From a virus (taxonomy: Duplodnaviria; Caudoviricetes), in IMG/VR virus record IMGVR_UViG_3300027365_000007: a stretch of 64,000 nt of DNA, one strand, 5' to 3'. The position numbers and the translations under genes are program-made. The notes under the pieces were generated by a model. That model was not told where the DNA came from. It worked only from the letters and a program-made list of their open reading frames with translations, and made no database searches. Shown in pieces: positions 1,430 to 57,175 of the stretch. How positions within the stretch are numbered: the first letter of the stretch is position 1; every line of letters begins with the position of its first letter.

Positions 1430-2242
1430 TCATGTCCATAACGATGTACGAATATTAAGAAGCCGTCTTAACATTTTTTCATCGTCCTTCTCAAACTCAT
1501 CTTCAAGATTATTCATTCGATCTAAACTTTCATGCAACTTCTTGTAATCATCTGGGTGATCTAGTGCAAATCTTGCATCTAGTATCAGCGCCCCTGAATA
1601 CTTTTTATTATATGTAACCCATGGTTCTTGGGACATATCTAATCGCTCTGACTCAGCTACGTCTTCCCTTTCATCTAGAATCTCAGTATACCACATATAC
1701 AATGCAAACAGTTCCGTATAAAAATCTTTGTTTTCATCATCATCATTAGTGCGCTCTATGATATGGTGTAAGCCCAGTTCCTTTGAGCGAAAGAATGCTT
1801 CTGCTATACCAAATACATCAAAATTATTATTCAACCATAGTCGCTTTTTGTATGCCTCATACAATGGATGGTCCTTGTCCATTGAAATAAATTCCAACCA
1901 AGCCAACTCTATTTCAACATAATCAACGACTAAAGCAAACATGGCATGTAGCATTCTCACATCTGCATCATAGTATCCGGGCGGTAAGGTAGTTTTCACA
2001 ACATGCAAACGTTGTGTTGTACGATACCTAACCCAATCCTTGACCTTATCTAAATGAGGTTTTATACATGCATGATAGTCCCTAGCAAAAAACATATCAT
2101 AAAGGTACGATATTCTATTTGGAATTATACGAAATAGTACAAACCTGAATTTATGATCCTTTTTATATTCATGCAAACTACTGTACTCGGGCTCAAGTTT
2201 CCTTAAGCCCTTAAGTACTAGCTTACTAATTTCTTCAATCAT
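1430..2242 (-). CDS. Hypothetical phage protein
   Basis: 270-aa ORF, coupled to the Thg1 gene by overlap. Confidence 0.7.
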   Translation of the reverse strand: MIEEISKLVLKGLRKLEPEYSSLHEYKKDHKFRFVLFRIIPNRISYLYDMFFARDYHACIKPHLDKVKDWVRYRTTQRLHVVKTTLPPGYYDADVRMLHAMFALVVDYVEIELAWLEFISMDKDHPLYEAYKKRLWLNNNFDVFGIAEAFFRSKELGLHHIIERTNDDDENKDFYTELFALYMWYTEILDEREDVAESERLDMSQEPWVTYNKKYSGALILDARFALDHPDDYKKLHESLDRMNNLEDEFEKDDEKMLRRLLNIRTSLWT

Positions 2243-3023
2243 GATCTACCAGCCTACTACCTAACGAAAGATTTTTGATTTCATTAAACGACAAGTTTTT
2301 AAATGCATTACATTTAATCTTGTGTCGTGTATATTCACGCGATTGAGGCTTTTTACCATCTGGGATTTTTGCCCAAATATGATCAGGAATCACATTATTT
2401 TCAAGACGCTTATATACATAAACACCATATTTGAAATCGTCTGGAAATTCATCCCAAACAACAGCACACTGATCTTCGAGCATTTCGATAACATCTTCCC
2501 GACTTCTCTTATGCATCTGCTTTTTATTCAGGAAGTGATGACCGACCATAGATACCGAGTTACGAACACAATCATGCTGACGCCATAGAATAGAATTAAC
2601 GGCTTCGTTATAATCAGGGACGTTGAATACTCTGGCATCAAAGTGTGGTACACTTTTTGAAACATGCTCTGGCCATACTTTCATAGCTTCAATAACAAAT
2701 TTCGATGTAGCTGTCGCTGATAAAACACTGACCAACTTCTGAATCTTAGCATCGAAAAATAGGTCTGGCTTAGGCACAATAATTGAAATCTCATCACTTT
2801 GGGTATATGCCAAGCATCCATCACATTCCTTCATGACATGTTCGGCGGTTCGGGTCATAACATGTCTAAAGTCTTCGTCATACGGACGTTTAAAGTTTCG
2901 GGTGAAGTTACTAAACCCGCGTCCATCTAAACGAACAATGACTGGAAGATTTTTATCGAGCCGTTGTTCAGTTTGCTTCTTTTCGTACATTTTCATACGC
3001 TTAGCAAAATCGGTATTGTCCAT
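2235..3023 (-). CDS. thg1: Thg1-like 3'-5' polymerase / tRNA(His) guanylyltransferase
   Basis: VRLDGRGFSNFT, AYTQSDEISI, FDARVFNVP and WRQHDCVRNSVS motifs; catalytic Asp residues intact. Confidence 0.92.
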   Translation of the reverse strand: MDNTDFAKRMKMYEKKQTEQRLDKNLPVIVRLDGRGFSNFTRNFKRPYDEDFRHVMTRTAEHVMKECDGCLAYTQSDEISIIVPKPDLFFDAKIQKLVSVLSATATSKFVIEAMKVWPEHVSKSVPHFDARVFNVPDYNEAVNSILWRQHDCVRNSVSMVGHHFLNKKQMHKRSREDVIEMLEDQCAVVWDEFPDDFKYGVYVYKRLENNVIPDHIWAKIPDGKKPQSREYTRHKIKCNAFKNLSFNEIKNLSLGSRLVDHD

Positions 3024-3047
3024 TGCACTGTCCTTTTATATTATTCA

Positions 3048-3272
3048 TTAACCAAAGTTGATGTATGATGCTCGACTTAGGATATAGTCAATGACACCTT
3101 CATTGACGTATGCAAGAACACGTTCACCGTTAATGGTCTTGCACTGATAGTTCTCGTTGTCGATGACATGAACAACATTCTCGGCAAATTCAACTTCAAT
3201 TCTTTTACCATGCAGGCTTCCACCTACAACATTAACTTCATCATTAGACACTACAGTTTTAATATCTGACAT
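3048..3272 (-). CDS. Hypothetical protein
   Basis: ORF track; co-oriented in the operon. Confidence 0.55.
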   Translation of the reverse strand: MSDIKTVVSNDEVNVVGGSLHGKRIEVEFAENVVHVIDNENYQCKTINGERVLAYVNEGVIDYILSRASYINFG

Positions 3273-3294
3273 AATGCTTCCTCATTCGTGTTTG

Positions 3295-3327
3295 TTCTAG
3301 TATACCAAAAATCATTCAGAAAGCAAA
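3295..3327 (-). promoter_or_regulatory. Candidate sigma70-type promoter (TTGCTT-N16-TATACT)
   Basis: Minus strand reads TTGCTT tctgaatgatttttgg TATACT upstream of the 3272 gene; coordinates approximate. Confidence 0.35.
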
Positions 3328-4376
3328 TCTTTAATGATATAATAATGATCTTCGAAAAACTGATCTCTCATTTTATCGATTTCGAACAGAGAAAACCACC
3401 CTGCATGTTCTTTTTGACTCTTCGTCTTACGTACTTTTGGGAAACCTTTTAGGCTTGTAACGTTATCTAGTTCAATAAGACCTGCATTAGTAATGATGCG
3501 TCCACGTAGTGATCGATTGGGATCATCATAGGTCTTTACCTTACGAACGTTTGAGCTGAGAATGTTTTCATGGACTTGAATATTGGTATCTTTTTTCAAG
3601 TTCTTAACGACACCTTCCTCAATGGTATCAACTTGGGCAAGAAAGCCCCCCGGCAAACAATAAAGGTCTTTCCCAACCGCGCCTTTTCTTTTAACAACCA
3701 ATACATAGCCTTTATAATAAACGACAGCATCTGTCGTTACGAACGTAGGTGGGAAAGGCGCAGCCTCCCATTGTGACTTTTGAAACATGACCGCTTCATA
3801 TTCTTCCTTGAGAGTTTCAAAGTCATAGCCTTTACGGTATGTATCATACCACTCTCCTTTTCTAAACTTATCATAAAGACTAGTCATATTGGGTGCGATA
3901 TGCAAAGAAATGTCTTCCATACCATAGAAGTCATGATAAAGCTCCTGACTGATGCCCATGTCTACCTTATTCACATTAAACATAGGTTCAGGGAAAATGT
4001 TTTCATAACGATGGTGTGATTCATTCGAAACATACACATTAAGCTCAAGATCTTTACGGTTCACACACAAGGTATTAAAGCGTTCATTCAATTTCGAATG
4101 AATATCTGTAATCCATTGTCGCTTATTGACAGGATTATCATTCAGAACACCGATGGAAAAATCTTCTTTTTCCAATCCACCATTGACTTCGATGGTTTTT
4201 AGAATATTATTTGCACGATCATTCTTGTCAAAGGGCATTGTATAGTCTTTAGAACGATCAGCCGAACATACGAAGATTAGTACGTGGTCGTTCTCATCCG
4301 ACGCCTTCCTAAGAACGTGGAAGATTTCGCGTGTTACAAAAGAGAACTTACTTACTACTATTCCGATCTTAGCCAT
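3312..4376 (-). CDS. NadM-Nudix (NMN adenylyltransferase/ADP-ribose pyrophosphatase) homolog with degenerate active sites
   Basis: Architecture and motifs PFPPTFVTTDAVV, GLYCLPGGF-like, DDPNRSLRGRIIT and FEDHYYII match the family. The HxGH motif and the Nudix box RExxEE are replaced. Confidence 0.85.
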   Translation of the reverse strand: MAKIGIVVSKFSFVTREIFHVLRKASDENDHVLIFVCSADRSKDYTMPFDKNDRANNILKTIEVNGGLEKEDFSIGVLNDNPVNKRQWITDIHSKLNERFNTLCVNRKDLELNVYVSNESHHRYENIFPEPMFNVNKVDMGISQELYHDFYGMEDISLHIAPNMTSLYDKFRKGEWYDTYRKGYDFETLKEEYEAVMFQKSQWEAAPFPPTFVTTDAVVYYKGYVLVVKRKGAVGKDLYCLPGGFLAQVDTIEEGVVKNLKKDTNIQVHENILSSNVRKVKTYDDPNRSLRGRIITNAGLIELDNVTSLKGFPKVRKTKSQKEHAGWFSLFEIDKMRDQFFEDHYYIIKDLLSE

Positions 4377-4597
4377 TTATCACTATCCCTTTTCATTATT
4401 AATCTTTCTTTACGATATAAATATACTACCACAGCCACATAGCATAATGCAACTATAATATGAATAAATGGGAGTTTTGATAATACAATAGAAAACGCCA
4501 CTTTTGTAGCTATAAAAGCGGTACTGTATAATGCTATGATGTAAAATGCGCCTATAAAGGCGCATATCAGAAAAGTCTCAATCTTTTTGTTCATCAA
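4358..4597 (-). CDS. Small membrane protein (two predicted TM segments)
   Basis: Hydrophobic stretches in the ORF translation. Confidence 0.5.
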   Translation of the reverse strand: MMNKKIETFLICAFIGAFYIIALYSTAFIATKVAFSIVLSKLPFIHIIVALCYVAVVVYLYRKERLIMKRDSDKWLRSE

Positions 4598-4617
4598 CTG
4601 TTAATCTCACAAGGTTG

Positions 4618-5118
4618 TCATGGATACTTTTTAAAAATATTCCTAACAATATCAATATTCATAAAATATGTTCTATTAAATTTATCAAAAATTCTGTTTA
4701 AGAAACTGGGATGTATGCAATCACGAAATACATGAAGCTGTAATATTTTACTATCTTTATATGTTTCATCTATATTAAAGCTGTTTTTCAGACCCATATT
4801 CATGTAAAATATAAACGTTTTTGTGGGTATTACATCATTGTTATCCCATATAGATGTTGTACTTACACCATCATTGCATGGTAGGTTCATACTGATAATA
4901 AAACTACATGTTTCGCACACCCCTCCATTATACTTCATCTCATAATTCATGATAGAGGCTAAGGACCGCTCATCATTTAGAACAATACCATTCTCAATCA
5001 TATAGTGTTTGAAATCATACGATTGGACATCCTTCATATAGTGGACTAAGGACGTTATGATATCAATTTCATTTTCTTCAGATGTATAGGGGTAAACGAC
5101 AATAGACTTACTCTTCAT
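4618..5118 (-). CDS. Hypothetical protein
   Basis: ORF track; 4-nt overlap with the upstream gene. Confidence 0.6.
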   Translation of the reverse strand: MKSKSIVVYPYTSEENEIDIITSLVHYMKDVQSYDFKHYMIENGIVLNDERSLASIMNYEMKYNGGVCETCSFIISMNLPCNDGVSTTSIWDNNDVIPTKTFIFYMNMGLKNSFNIDETYKDSKILQLHVFRDCIHPSFLNRIFDKFNRTYFMNIDIVRNIFKKYP

Positions 5119-5579
5119 AGATACAGTCGATAACAGAATATTGGTAATTTTATATTCTTATTTATCACCGTATCGACAATTGTTGCACTAGAAAGCATAC
5201 TGAAGTTATTCAGCAACAAAGCGTCATCTACGTTAGTTGTTATAAGATACGTATATCCACGCACGATAGTAATTAACTTTTCTTTCTTATCCAACACGTG
5301 TAGTTTATCGTAATCTACTTCTTTGTCGTTTAACCACTTTTTTACTAATTCACCATCAGGATCACTATTCGATCTTCTAGAATAGATATCTATTGTGTAA
5401 CCACGCTGTCTAAGCATATGTATCATAACCAACATATAAGCATTGATTTTTAGCCTAGACATACACCACTGATCCATCGCACCAACGGATATGGGATTGA
5501 TGCGATGTTTGTTAATCTTTTTGAGAGTACCAAAAGTGTCTGCTATGGTATTATCAAATTCAAATAATGCTACTGGCAT
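5115..5579 (-). CDS. HAD-fold nucleotidase-like protein, degenerate (start re-called at 5579)
   Basis: MPVALFEFDNTIADT resembles motif I DxDxT with D>E; YSRR matches motif II. ATG 5579 follows the DUF3307 stop directly. Confidence 0.55.
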   Translation of the reverse strand: MPVALFEFDNTIADTFGTLKKINKHRINPISVGAMDQWCMSRLKINAYMLVMIHMLRQRGYTIDIYSRRSNSDPDGELVKKWLNDKEVDYDKLHVLDKKEKLITIVRGYTYLITTNVDDALLLNNFSMLSSATIVDTVINKNIKLPIFCYRLYL

Positions 5580-5581
5580 AC

Positions 5582-5965
5582 TTAAACAAAGACAATACAG
5601 GCTATGATAGCATAGTGTGTCAGATGATGTACGGACTGGTCCAGTCCAAGCGACCACCAAAAGTACTTATTTTTAATATCGAAACGTCCCAACAGGTCTG
5701 GGCTGGCTTTAACCCTATCCATGATAGAATGAATTACAAAATCAAAAGCCGCCAATGCCAATGATAGAACGAACGTTTGAGTAAATGCTAACGAAATAAT
5801 AAAGGTGGCAACTGAATGTACCGCTGTGTGAGCAAATAACGGTTTCATCCATCCTACTTTTTTGAATTTTCCAAGCATATATTTTCCCTGTAGTGGAAAG
5901 TCACACAGAAAATGCTTAACTTGGAAAATGACTAGCAATACGAAAATACTAACAATCGGGTCCAT
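5582..5965 (-). CDS. DUF3307-like membrane protein
   Basis: HFLCDFPLQ, HTAVH, HSIMD and GLDQSVHH motifs within hydrophobic helices. Confidence 0.8.
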   Translation of the reverse strand: MDPIVSIFVLLVIFQVKHFLCDFPLQGKYMLGKFKKVGWMKPLFAHTAVHSVATFIISLAFTQTFVLSLALAAFDFVIHSIMDRVKASPDLLGRFDIKNKYFWWSLGLDQSVHHLTHYAIIACIVFV

Positions 5966-6126: not shown

Positions 6127-6483
6127 CTACTTTAGAATTTCATTATTGATTAATGTGAGGCGAATCTTATACCGATCCCAAAAAATATGCTTAGCATTGA
6201 GAATATACTTTACGGCATTCGTATTTGATGAATGAACGTATATAACCTTAAGCTTACTAAGATCAATATCATTCCAGTAAAGGCGCTCTTCAATCCAATT
6301 GAAAATGTCTTTACCTTCAACTTCTTCACCCAAGTCATTGTCAAGACTCAATACTTCAAATTTATTGGAAGACAAGTGCTTAAAGGCTTCTTCAGAAGTC
6401 TTTGCCCACACCCAATCACCTTTTACATAATCATTGGGATCTCTTAGGTCATCGACCCATAGTTGCAATGACATAACTTTCAC
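6127..6483 (-). CDS. Cyclic-phosphate-processing receiver (REC-like) domain protein
   Basis: LWVDDLRDP, LSLDNDLGE, GKDIFNWIEE and VHSSN motifs. Confidence 0.8.
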   Translation of the reverse strand: MKVMSLQLWVDDLRDPNDYVKGDWVWAKTSEEAFKHLSSNKFEVLSLDNDLGEEVEGKDIFNWIEERLYWNDIDLSKLKVIYVHSSNTNAVKYILNAKHIFWDRYKIRLTLINNEILK

Positions 6484-6749: not shown

Positions 6750-7094
6750 ATGAAAACTGGTGACATTCTACCACAGAAAGAACAGATAGGAAAAGTAGTT
6801 TCCTATATTATTAAAAATCTACAAGATGGACAAACAATACTGGATGGTGTTGAGATAAAAAACAAGCATGATTATGATTTCATAAGCGATGCGTTAATTG
6901 TAACTATTGATAAAAATATAGAACCACCAGCCAACTCTGAATATAAAGTAGATGAATTCTGGGGTAACCAAATACGAATAGATATAGCTGCAAAAGGTTT
7001 GGATAAAAAGGAAATACGCAATATCTTAAAGAAAGCATTTGATGAGTATATTGATGTTTTCAATCGAAAAACACATAAGTATGACACACTATAA
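6750..7094 (+). CDS. Hypothetical protein
   Basis: 114-aa ORF followed by a terminator hairpin. Confidence 0.6.
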   Translation: MKTGDILPQKEQIGKVVSYIIKNLQDGQTILDGVEIKNKHDYDFISDALIVTIDKNIEPPANSEYKVDEFWGNQIRIDIAAKGLDKKEIRNILKKAFDEYIDVFNRKTHKYDTL

Positions 7095-7098
7095 TTAA

Positions 7099-7120
7099 AA
7101 AATCCCCCGTAGGGGATTTT
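7099..7120. terminator. Bidirectional intrinsic terminator
   Basis: AAAATCCCC-CGTA-GGGGATTTT between convergent genes. Confidence 0.75.
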
Positions 7121-7227: not shown

Positions 7228-7470
7228 TTAAGAAGTTCTAAACATAAGTGAATAGGCATTAAAAAAGTCTCTGAATTTATCGTCCAGAGACTTTTTATGT
7301 TTTACCTTCCTGTTGTAAGATTTTCCCTTTCCTTTCTTAGGTTCTTCAACTTTATGTTTGAACATTGGTGAAGTAACCGCTGCGGCGAAATAATTATCTT
7401 TTATTTCACCTCTCCCAAGATCGTGCTTATGCTTGGGAGTATTTTTATGTTTATTTCTTCGTTTAGACAT
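7228..7470 (-). CDS. arfA: Alternative ribosome-rescue factor A
   Basis: GEIKDNYFAAAVTSPMFKHKVEEPKKGKGKSYNRKVKH aligns with E. coli ArfA [37 protein letters not shown] (recalled). AGGAG at 7483-7479 places the start at ATG 7470. Confidence 0.9.
   Translation of the reverse strand: MSKRRNKHKNTPKHKHDLGRGEIKDNYFAAAVTSPMFKHKVEEPKKGKGKSYNRKVKHKKSLDDKFRDFFNAYSLMFRTS
7261..7296 (-). terminator. Intrinsic terminator inside the arfA coding sequence
   Basis: Perfect 12-bp inverted repeat AAAAAGTCTCTG (7262-7273) / CAGAGACTTTTT (7285-7296). On the mRNA a GC-containing stem is followed by six U residues, 10 codons before the stop. Confidence 0.75.
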
Positions 7471-7481
7471 AATATACACTC

Positions 7482-7868
7482 CTATAGTCTCAGTCTTGCT
7501 TTATCGATAAGTTCTATCATTTCTTCATGTGGTATTGTATTTAGGTATTCCTCAGTAGATTCCAGTGTCATCTCGGATTCATAATGTAGTAGTATCAATT
7601 CTCCTGCACAAAAGCGTGTCCGCAATGACATAGCATATACAACTCGGGCATCTTCATCAATTGTTCCACGAGGCATATTATACTTATCTTCCATTTTAGT
7701 AAAATCTTTAGCTAGAAGTTTAAAAATACCATTTAGTTTTTTACGTTGAATATCATCAGCATCTCCATTGCAGTACTCCATGTACTTGATTTTATAAAAT
7801 GAATCAACCTCTACACGCTTATTAGAAAACGTTTTTGGGTGCGAAACAATAACTACATAGGAAGACAT
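7482..7868 (-). CDS. Hypothetical protein
   Basis: ORF track; directly upstream of arfA. Confidence 0.65.
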   Translation of the reverse strand: MSSYVVIVSHPKTFSNKRVEVDSFYKIKYMEYCNGDADDIQRKKLNGIFKLLAKDFTKMEDKYNMPRGTIDEDARVVYAMSLRTRFCAGELILLHYESEMTLESTEEYLNTIPHEEMIELIDKARLRL

Positions 7869-11225: not shown

Positions 11226-11711
11226 TTAACACCATTCGTCGCTTATCGCTTCGCTATATTCTTCACCGAGCGTTATCTGACCTAAGTCGCTCAACAGATC
11301 ATTATCAGGTAAGTCACCGTCATAATCATAACTCAACGTAATATGAGGCGAATAGTTATCATAGGAGTGTATAAATCCTGCTGCAAGAAGCTCGTTATGT
11401 CGAGATTGAAGTTCAGGGGAGTCTAACTTTATAACCAAGCAATCAGACTCGTCGCCATATAATGCGAACTCAGAAGCAGTTGCGGTGTATTCTAAGTCAC
11501 TACTTGGTGGAATTAGCGGATTACCTTTATCCTCAGAATACACAAGTGTTACATGTAGCGTATCTAAATCTATTGGATTTTTGATCTTCAACTTCTTTAT
11601 TAAACCATCAATCTTTTTCTTTGTTTCTTCGTCTGGTGTAACGCCAAAGTATGAACCATTTTTAAATGATTGATAATAGTATTCGAATTTCTCTTTATTA
11701 AAATAACTCAT
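11226..11711 (-). CDS. acb1: Anti-CBASS 2H phosphoesterase (T4 gp57B/Acb1 homolog)
   Basis: Two HxT motifs (LHVTLVYS, PHITLSY), LVIKLDS, RH, HSYDNYSPH and C-terminal EY.E...W, collinear with T4 Acb1. Confidence 0.88.
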   Translation of the reverse strand: MSYFNKEKFEYYYQSFKNGSYFGVTPDEETKKKIDGLIKKLKIKNPIDLDTLHVTLVYSEDKGNPLIPPSSDLEYTATASEFALYGDESDCLVIKLDSPELQSRHNELLAAGFIHSYDNYSPHITLSYDYDGDLPDNDLLSDLGQITLGEEYSEAISDEWC

Positions 11712-54952: not shown

Positions 54953-57175
54953 TTAGGTGACTTTGAGTGTGTAACCATCACCCTGCACATTTACTGATAC
55001 CTTACCACCATTTTTCAGATCGCCGTAGACAATCTCTTTAGAAAGTGGTTTCTTGATCTTGTCTTTGATTTCACGCTTCAGAGGACGTGCCCCCATCGCT
55101 TCATCAAATCCATCTTCCATAAGCTTTTCTTTCGCTTTCTTAGAAAGCGTTACGCTTACACCACTTTCTTCAAGTTGTTTGTTGAGAAGCTTGATTTCTT
55201 TCTCAACAATTAGTGCCATGCTATCAATAGTAAGGTTATTGAAAGAACATGTTGCACTCAGGCGATTCACAAACTCAGGTGCGAAGAATTTATTAATCGC
55301 ATCCAGATCGGCAGTGTTTTGTGTTTTATTATTAAAACCAATGCTGCCAGCATTTTTAGCTTGTGCCCCGAGGTTTGTAGTCATCAAGATAATTACATCC
55401 TTGAAACTCACTGTCTTACCTTGTGAGGATGTCAGTTTTGCGTCATCCATCACTTGTAGAAGCACTGTCAGTACTTTAGGATGTGCCTTTTCAATCTCAT
55501 CCAGTAGCAGAACACAGTTGGGGTTATCTGCAATATCATCAATCAGCTTCGCTGAATTCTCATCATAACCTGTATAACCCGGAGGCGCACCAATCAGTTT
55601 TGCCACGGAATGCGATTCCTGATACTCAGACATATCGTACTTGATCAAAGGAATCGCAAGGTTATCTGAAAGTTGACGAGCAATTTCAGTTTTACCCACA
55701 CCGCTAGTGCCTGACATCAAGAATGAACCAGTTGGTTTGTTATCTTCTTTCAGACCAGACTTCGCAATAAGAATTTCTTCACAGATCAGATCAACTACAT
55801 GATCCTGACCAAAAAGGTTCTTCTTGATATTGTCTTCAAGGTTCTTGAAGACATTATCTTCAGTCTTTTGCATTGCCTGTAGCGGCACATTAGTGAATTT
55901 TGAAACTGTTTTCTGGAACTCATCTAGAGTCACCGATTCGATATTGTTGATTTTGCAGTATGCACCAGCCGCATCCAAAACATCAATCGCCTTATCTGGG
56001 AACGCTCGATTCTGAATGTAGCGCTGACACAGACCCAACATATCATAAACTTCATCCACGTTATATTTCACACTATGGAACTTCTCATATACTGGGATAA
56101 GCTTTTCAATAATGGTAGCTGTATCCTTCAGAGACGGTTCATTAATAGTGTAATTCTGGAACCGACGGACCATTGCTTTATCTTTCTCAAAACTGGTTTT
56201 ATATTCTTCACCAGTAGTAGCAGCAATACACATGAGCTTACCACGAGAAAGCATCGGTTTCAGAATATTACCAAGATCAACGCCGCCCTGTGTAGATGCA
56301 CCAGCACCCATTACAGTATGTGCTTCGTCAATGAAAACGATACAATTGCCTTGTTCGGCAAGGTATTCAATAGTTTTCTTAGCACGTTCTTCGAACTCAC
56401 CGCGATACTTAGTACCAGCAAGCATACCAGCAACATCAATTACCATTACTCGCTTATCCAGCAATGATTCGTGACAATCACCGTTATGAATAGCAAGGGC
56501 AATACCTTCTACGACCGCAGTCTTACCAACACCCGGATTACCCAGAAGCATTGCGTTATTCTTTTTCTTACGAGCAAGAATTTCTGCGATTTCATGAATT
56601 TCAGTATCACGTCCAATTACTGGATCAATACGGCCTTCTTCCGCTTCTAGTGTAAGGTCAGTGACGAAATCACCTTCTTCCACTTCTTCTTTTCCAGTGG
56701 TTGTTTTAGACTTCTTCAGTACATCAATGATTCGATCACGTGCACCCGGTACAGATCCTTCAATGATGGCTTTAGTAATATCAAGCTTATCGTACTGTTC
56801 TTCCAGAAGCACAAGCATGATGTCTTCACATCGAGTATCTTGGGTATTACGCCCCTTGGACATAACGTTCATTACTGCACTGGAAACAGATTTCAATACG
56901 GTTTGTGAAATACGAAGCTCATCTTCATGGGCTACGCTATGTTGAGGCGAATTACGGTTCAGCTCATTCTGGATCACACGAGCCAAGGATTCAGAGTTGA
57001 TTTCAGACTCCCTGAATGCTTTCGCAATATATTCGTTATTCAAAAGACATACGAAAAGGTGATCAGGCGTGAGAACGTCATAGTAAGTACTCATTGCCAG
57101 ACGTGTACTTTCAGTGATTACATTTTCCACTTCTGGCGGAACACGTGGCTCACGATTTTGGTTTTGATCACTCAT
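54953..57175 (-). CDS. clpA: ClpA-like AAA+ unfoldase
   Basis: Clp N domain (PDHLF), GNPGVGKT, AGTKYRGEFEER, FIDEAH, GTSGVGKT, DMSEYQE, LLDEIEKAH, IGF loop and MGARPL; no ClpB middle domain. Confidence 0.92.
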   Translation of the reverse strand: MSDQNQNREPRVPPEVENVITESTRLAMSTYYDVLTPDHLFVCLLNNEYIAKAFRESEINSESLARVIQNELNRNSPQHSVAHEDELRISQTVLKSVSSAVMNVMSKGRNTQDTRCEDIMLVLLEEQYDKLDITKAIIEGSVPGARDRIIDVLKKSKTTTGKEEVEEGDFVTDLTLEAEEGRIDPVIGRDTEIHEIAEILARKKKNNAMLLGNPGVGKTAVVEGIALAIHNGDCHESLLDKRVMVIDVAGMLAGTKYRGEFEERAKKTIEYLAEQGNCIVFIDEAHTVMGAGASTQGGVDLGNILKPMLSRGKLMCIAATTGEEYKTSFEKDKAMVRRFQNYTINEPSLKDTATIIEKLIPVYEKFHSVKYNVDEVYDMLGLCQRYIQNRAFPDKAIDVLDAAGAYCKINNIESVTLDEFQKTVSKFTNVPLQAMQKTEDNVFKNLEDNIKKNLFGQDHVVDLICEEILIAKSGLKEDNKPTGSFLMSGTSGVGKTEIARQLSDNLAIPLIKYDMSEYQESHSVAKLIGAPPGYTGYDENSAKLIDDIADNPNCVLLLDEIEKAHPKVLTVLLQVMDDAKLTSSQGKTVSFKDVIILMTTNLGAQAKNAGSIGFNNKTQNTADLDAINKFFAPEFVNRLSATCSFNNLTIDSMALIVEKEIKLLNKQLEESGVSVTLSKKAKEKLMEDGFDEAMGARPLKREIKDKIKKPLSKEIVYGDLKNGGKVSVNVQGDGYTLKVT

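Follow-up and report, generated by a model that had tools for sequence, protein, structure and literature searches.

An open reading frame of 80 codons and a stop codon lies on the minus strand at positions 7228 to 7470 (stop included) of the window, the whole 64,000-nt stretch of DNA that was analysed. Its product (P0001) matched the Pfam ArfA family (PF03889) with an E-value of 6e-18 and 64.5 bits, over profile positions 1-44 of 44. The start codon is the ATG at 7470, and a Shine-Dalgarno sequence, AGGAG, was found at 7479 to 7483 on the same strand, 8 nt 5' of the ATG, where it overlaps the TAG stop codon (7482-7484) of the upstream gene. The AGGAG site is kept in two relatives (L001 and L003), both of which start at the equivalent ATG behind it. 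A GTG at 7479 was rejected as the start because it sits within the Shine-Dalgarno site. The preliminary description had proposed an ArfA ribosome-rescue factor at this position, with a strong Shine-Dalgarno sequence and the motif string IKDN..A...P.F...VE..KKGKG.SY.RK.KH. The string is read exactly so in the translation of P0001, the AGGAG sequence stands 8 nt from the ATG, and the proposed identity was borne out by a score far above the Pfam cut-off of 25.5 bits. The Pfam scan of P0001 gave nothing besides ArfA, and no RF-1 domain (PF00472, the GGQ peptidyl-tRNA hydrolase domain of ArfB) was detected; no match was obtained against PHROGs v4 (E 0.001) or NCBIfam. When P0001 was compared with PDB sequences by phmmer, ArfA chains only were recovered (5U4I, 7OJ0, 5MGP, 5MDV and 5H5U; best E 7.5e-7). 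These matches identify the product of the ORF as a phage-borne member of the ArfA family.

The ArfA core, delimited by the Pfam stretch and by alignment to the five PDB entries, comprises residues 15-59 (7294 to 7428, minus strand) and contains A30, F37, HKVE at residues 39-42, KKGKG-K-SY and K57-H58. Phage residues 18-59 align with residues 8-48 of E. coli ArfA, with one residue inserted (KGKG-K-SY). The roles of A18, F25 and the Q27-E30 strand of E. coli ArfA in the recruitment and activation of RF2 have been established from solved structures (reviewed in PMC8012679). A18, at which the A18T change blocks RF2 activation, corresponds to A30 of the phage protein; F25, a hydrophobic RF2 contact, corresponds to F37; and Q27-E30, the strand extending the RF2 sheet, corresponds to H39-K40-V41-E42 (PMC8012679). 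The C-terminal KH motif of the E. coli protein is represented by K57-H58, and the Lys/Arg-rich C-terminal part, the mRNA-channel filler in ArfA, is present as KKGKG-K-SYNRKVKH, one residue being inserted. Three further features that had been noted beforehand were all found in the protein: the alanine at the A18 equivalent is A30, the one-residue insertion in KGKGS is seen in the HMMER alignment to PDB 5U4I (KGKG-K-SY versus KGKG-SY), and the basic N-terminal extension is present, exceeding that of E. coli ArfA by 12 residues. The extra residue after KGKG occurs in six of the eight genes of the phage clade described below (it is absent from L096 and L098) and also in P0010. Like this insertion, a G-to-D change in L001 and L003 falls within the ribosome-binding part. 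A basic N-terminal extension is common to the Shewanella and Vibrio ArfAs, which align from phage residues 1-7, and it is therefore not a phage novelty, since marine gammaproteobacterial ArfAs have one too.

The large ORFs of the window matched PHROGs for tail fibres, a baseplate connector, a DnaB-like helicase, an SbcC-like nuclease and helicases, and one ORF matched T4 gp9/10. A 222.6-kb contig is on record with a protein identical to P0001. The claim that the gene is phage-encoded holds on both counts, and the window is DNA of an approximately 222-kb uncultured T4-related (jumbo) phage with a G+C content, in the window, of approximately 36%. Among sequencing runs, only a subsurface metagenome covered it in full. 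Megablast of the 7 kb around arfA against cultured phages gave no match, so that there is no close cultured phage at the DNA level.

A gene of 128 amino acids (7482 to 7868, minus strand) lies 11 nt upstream of arfA, its stop codon overlapping the arfA Shine-Dalgarno sequence, and the two genes probably share one transcript with arfA as the last of two. Homologues of this gene are found upstream of arfA in L001 and L006 (41% identity), and ORFs matching its size and position are present in L003 and L097; the upstream gene of L007 is unrelated. The 128-amino-acid protein had no match in Pfam, PHROG, NCBIfam or Atlas. Past the 3' end of arfA, a convergent gene of 114 amino acids (6750 to 7094, plus strand) has a convergent gene at the same position in the relatives, and it is followed by a gene for a cyclic-phosphate processing receiver domain, cREC_REC (6127 to 6483, minus strand; PF20274, E 5.9e-20). 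The rest of the block (2235 to 5965, minus strand), assigned with Pfam, PHROGs and NCBIfam and found in the same order in L007, L096 and L098, comprises a DUF3307 gene (5582-5965), a bifunctional NMN adenylyltransferase/Nudix-like gene (3312-4376), which matched the PRK05379 models of NCBIfam below their cut-offs, and a Thg1-like 3'-5' nucleotidyltransferase gene (2235-3023; Pfam E 1.7e-36), all on the minus strand. The last two are candidates for restoration of NAD+ and repair of tRNA 5' ends, respectively. An Acb1 anti-CBASS 2H phosphodiesterase is encoded at 11226-11711 (minus strand; PF23474, E 2e-29). Elsewhere in the window, the minus strand of 54953-57175 encodes a 740-amino-acid double-AAA+ Hsp100 unfoldase of the ClpA/ClpB type (phrog_4871, 818 bits; Pfam AAA_2, AAA and ClpB_D2-small), which might be relevant to how tagged proteins are turned over during infection.

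When 1.8 billion representatives were searched, the nearest relatives of the phage ArfA were P0002-P0008, at 47-80% identity. Eight distinct phage contigs carry arfA in one syntenic block, namely the window and the seven others for which context could be fetched: L001 (IMG/VR, 239 kb), L003, L006, L007/L008, L096, L097 and L098/L099. The order of the block is M15 peptidase, a gene of approximately 125 amino acids, arfA, a convergent gene of approximately 92-128 amino acids, cREC_REC, DUF3307, NMN adenylyltransferase/Nudix and Thg1-like, all of which are present in the window. The cREC_REC gene is a constant neighbour of arfA, being found in L001 (by ORF similarity), L003, L006, L007, L096, L097 and L098. 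Two other records filed under IMG/VR were discarded. The match to L002 was a spurious low-complexity match in GC-rich DNA, and in L012 (IMGVR_UViG_2541047228_000006) the arfA gene adjoins hscB-iscA-iscU-iscS, which is a bacterial context; L012 is filed as viral but probably represents host DNA or the flank of a prophage. A short metagenome contig (L009) encodes, at positions 887-1123 and after a YqeY-domain gene, a more distant ArfA (P0005). This arfA gene contains a very strong internal terminator (dG -23 kcal/mol, U6), and the next gene begins at the arfA stop.

ArfA was also found in cultured phages. In Pseudomonas phage pf16 (KU873925), an unannotated ORF of 47 amino acids (L004:3998-4141) matched Pfam ArfA with an E-value of 1.9e-20; it has a Shine-Dalgarno sequence and a GTG start, overlaps pf16_199, an annotated gene on the other strand, and its stop codon falls within an inverted repeat. 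In Salmonella phage Arash (OQ632216), gp99c (L093:2417-2641) is annotated as 'ribosomal protein L2' and matched Pfam ArfA with an E-value of 5.6e-19; it adjoins a tRNA gene cluster, and the tree places it with Salmonella ArfA. Both genes belong to phage lineages and gene contexts that differ from those of the clade described here, and unlike the genes of that clade they have ordinary stop codons and no terminator within the ORF. Citromicrobium phage RXM g10 has been annotated as ArfA in passing (PMC8953757), and it gave no match to the P0001 query at E 1e-3. A tblastn search of phages with a short-form ArfA query (P0053) found nothing. In the literature, no study of phage ArfA function was found, only passing annotation. 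On these sequence matches, ArfA recurs in phages, where its genes have been overlooked or misnamed: that of pf16 is unannotated, that of Arash carries a ribosomal protein name, and P0001 matched no PHROGs v4 family.

Conservation of the core was examined in two sets of sequences. Among the 35 relatives aligned from an exhaustive HMMER search over the 1.8 billion representatives, no column except G21 and A30 is invariant. In the five of the eight phage-clade genes that were measured, pN of the core was 0.015-0.26 compared to a pS of 0.53-1.0, which is near saturation, and dN/dS was 0.02-0.05 where it could be computed. The arfA core is under strong purifying selection. The low dN/dS and the saturated synonymous sites indicate that arfA is functional and has been held for a long time, and that it is no stray host fragment. 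The nearest named bacterial ArfAs were gammaproteobacterial, those of Shewanella, Vibrio and Pseudoalteromonas, with 55-69% core identity, in a search that was biased by its pattern. In a tree of 54 columns, the window, L001 and L003 were grouped with a support of 95, most forks being unresolved, and in this poorly resolved tree the phage clade fell outside the sampled Shewanella, Vibrio and Pseudoalteromonas groups. Since the tree is too unresolved, neither the donor nor the host can be named from it. Outside the gammaproteobacteria, ArfA occurs only in some betaproteobacteria and a few Bacillus species (PMC11633108), and because of this distribution a proteobacterial host is likely. The bacterial nature of the family (PMC11633108), together with the Arash copy that groups with Salmonella ArfA, would also suit a recent capture of a host gene that has no role for the phage. 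We regard such a capture as extremely improbable for the clade described here, in view of the fixed position of the gene across at least eight phage contigs with ArfA identities of only 47-80%, the saturated synonymous sites with very low dN/dS, and the placement of the clade outside the sampled bacterial groups.

A hairpin with a stem of 14 bp and a loop of 7 nt was found within the arfA ORF at 7262 to 7296 (minus strand), where the sequence encodes KKSLDDKFRDF (residues 60-70). It is closed by a run of six U residues at 7261 to 7266 (minus strand; codons F69-F70), the predicted 3' end of a non-stop mRNA, and the A-run of the KHKK codons pairs with the U-run that is read as Phe-Phe. The folding energy was -15.9 kcal/mol (z -6.9), and none of 200 shuffled sequences folded as well. 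A hairpin and a run of six or seven U residues were present within the ORF in all eight phage-clade arfA genes, 25-87 nt upstream of the stop codon; the eight hairpins had dG values of -13.7 to -17.6 kcal/mol and at least five different stem sequences, and the hairpin region of L097 encodes a different peptide. When six hairpins (five of the clade and that of L009) were compared with shuffled sequences, dG ranged from -13.9 to -23 kcal/mol and z from -6.4 to -8.0. The locus was scanned in the alignment of eight sequences, that of 35 sequences being too diverse. In an alignment of four distinct sequences, every cell (100%) of the ten lower stem pairs was paired, compared to 35-70% in slid controls, and two pairs were changed on both sides. 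Between the window and L001 there is a further swap of a G-C to an A-U pair, for which two codons changed synonymously (CTG to TTA and TTC to TTT).

Past the U-run, the ORF continues for 10 codons and the stop (7228 to 7260, minus strand), and this tail is unconstrained. In the five genes that were measured, the tails 3' of the U-run were 6-27 amino acids long and could not be aligned, and their indels were not multiples of three. The structure thus persists over a stretch whose peptide is not conserved, and beyond it constraint disappears, which fits most transcripts ending at the U-run. By its form, a 14-bp stem followed by a U-run, the phage hairpin is classed as being of the intrinsic-terminator type. 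We propose that it most likely ends transcription approximately 30 nt before the stop codon, leaving an arfA mRNA that would be stop-less. The predicted product ends near F69-F70, at about residue 57 of E. coli ArfA when the 12-residue extension and the insertion are allowed for; this is close to the end of the active truncated form of the E. coli protein. Only four of the 14 pairs of the window stem are G-C, so termination efficiency is uncertain. A simple terminator scan did not flag the internal hairpin, and our guess is that a stem running through A5/U5 pairs uses up the T-run. The terminator scan did identify a second, two-way terminator with a 9-bp stem and a T run at 7099 to 7120, between arfA and the convergent gene, which lies 110 nt past the arfA stop and would catch read-through.

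This strong second terminator, the A-U-rich stem of the first and the ordinary stop codons of pf16 and Arash arfA speak for an ArfA that is made constitutively. In that case the internal hairpin would serve only to stabilise the 3' end or as a leaky terminator of the operon, the full-length protein of 80 amino acids translated from transcripts that read through to 7099-7120 would be the active product, and there would be no tmRNA gating. We consider constitutive production unlikely. All eight diverged relatives have the terminator within the ORF even though its distance to the stop varies from 25 to 87 nt, and a tail that varies in length, sequence and frame makes a functional full-length form improbable. 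Since pf16 and Arash use ordinary stops, tmRNA gating would not be a general need of phage ArfAs.

Bacteria rescue ribosomes trapped on broken mRNAs mainly by tmRNA, with ArfA as a back-up factor. We consider it probable, from the features of the gene and by analogy with its bacterial counterparts, that the phage ArfA is an RF2-dependent back-up rescue factor produced from a stop-less arfA mRNA when trans-translation is saturated or disabled. [quoted passage not shown] The internal hairpin and U-run (7261-7296) would end the arfA transcript itself before its stop codon. If the bacterial paradigm applies, the ArfA peptide would be tagged and degraded as long as host tmRNA-SmpB is coping, and an untagged ArfA of approximately 70 residues would escape and act as the back-up once the infected cell's trans-translation is saturated or has been disabled. 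By the same analogy, the conserved internal terminator should keep ArfA from building up unless tmRNA is in short supply. Phage nucleases or defence nucleases that cleave mRNA on a large scale could bring about the saturation. On the 239-kb sister contig (L001), no RF-1-domain gene was found and the tmRNA search gave sub-threshold, tRNA-sized matches only, a result that fits a dependence on host factors.

The conserved channel-binding tail might also serve an anti-host protein that occupies vacant mRNA channels and blocks tmRNA-SmpB or host rescue, performing no rescue itself. This is very unlikely in our judgement, as the RF2-activating residues (the invariant A30, F37 and the HKVE strand) are kept under strong purifying selection and a pure blocker needs none of them. 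The arfA gene lies among genes that suit a role under RNA damage or defence, cREC_REC, Thg1-like, NMN adenylyltransferase/Nudix and Acb1, although evidence of this kind is circumstantial. The preliminary description had suggested that the phage brings its own rescue capacity for a cell flooded with non-stop complexes or deprived of tmRNA; the internal terminator and these RNA-repair-like and counter-defence-like neighbours, neither of which it had listed, would lend that suggestion indirect support. A tentative and rather doubtful extension is that a conserved set of phage genes works as a module against RNA damage, with the stop-less arfA as its sensing arm; the module would consist of ArfA, cREC_REC, DUF3307, NMN adenylyltransferase/Nudix and Thg1-like. 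If that were true, the cutting of mRNAs or tRNAs by defence nucleases would swamp tmRNA, ArfA would accumulate automatically and ribosomes would be freed for phage proteins, and meanwhile the neighbours of arfA would repair RNA and restore NAD+.

Ribosome rescue is usually viewed as bacterial housekeeping. That arfA and its predicted tmRNA-gated non-stop design have been kept through long divergence is an argument that phage yield is, in some circumstances, limited by stalled ribosomes; mRNA cleavage on a mass scale, at take-over or by defence RNases, is a plausible such circumstance. The phage arfA offers a directly testable system.

Bacterial arfA contains a stem-loop, and premature termination or RNase III cleavage gives rise to a non-stop arfA mRNA (PMC8012679). 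The phage protein belongs to the same Pfam family as E. coli and Salmonella ArfA (YhdL) and aligns over E. coli residues 6-48, with the A18, F25, Q27-E30 strand, KGKG and KH positions kept, and in both cases a hairpin lies within the ORF before a non-conserved hydrophobic tail. It differs from E. coli ArfA in its 12 extra basic N-terminal residues and in the one residue after KGKG. The Salmonella arfA fold, a stem of approximately 21 bp that contains the U-run, is of the RNase III type, whereas in the phage the U-run follows the 14-bp stem. In Bacillus subtilis, BrfA (YqkK) is a small RF2-dependent rescue factor whose gene has a rho-independent terminator before its stop (PMC8012679); it is a separately named Bacillus factor, and the Pfam scan of the phage protein gave ArfA only. 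The arfA genes of Vibrio, Pseudoalteromonas and Alteromonadaceae (L016, L019-L027, L031, L035, L037, L042 and others) were mostly without a strong internal hairpin. Their proteins have an ordinary stop after ...YSKAA, ...YLMAA, ...YFMAA or ...YLIAA, which resembles the end of the ssrA degradation tag, and such a C-terminus may be a hard-wired degron that replaces the non-stop design. Terminator-type arfA genes are mentioned for other proteobacteria (Schaub et al. 2012, as cited in PMC8012679). The Shewanella arfA genes contain GC-rich hairpins and T-runs inside the ORF, with dG values of -18 to -24 kcal/mol, and they share with the phage gene the hairpin and U-run in the ORF, an ALVTS-type core, the basic N-terminal extension and 55-69% core identity. 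In contrast to Shewanella arfA, the phage stems are A-U rich, and the phage gene lies in a phage accessory block and not in a bacterial chromosome.
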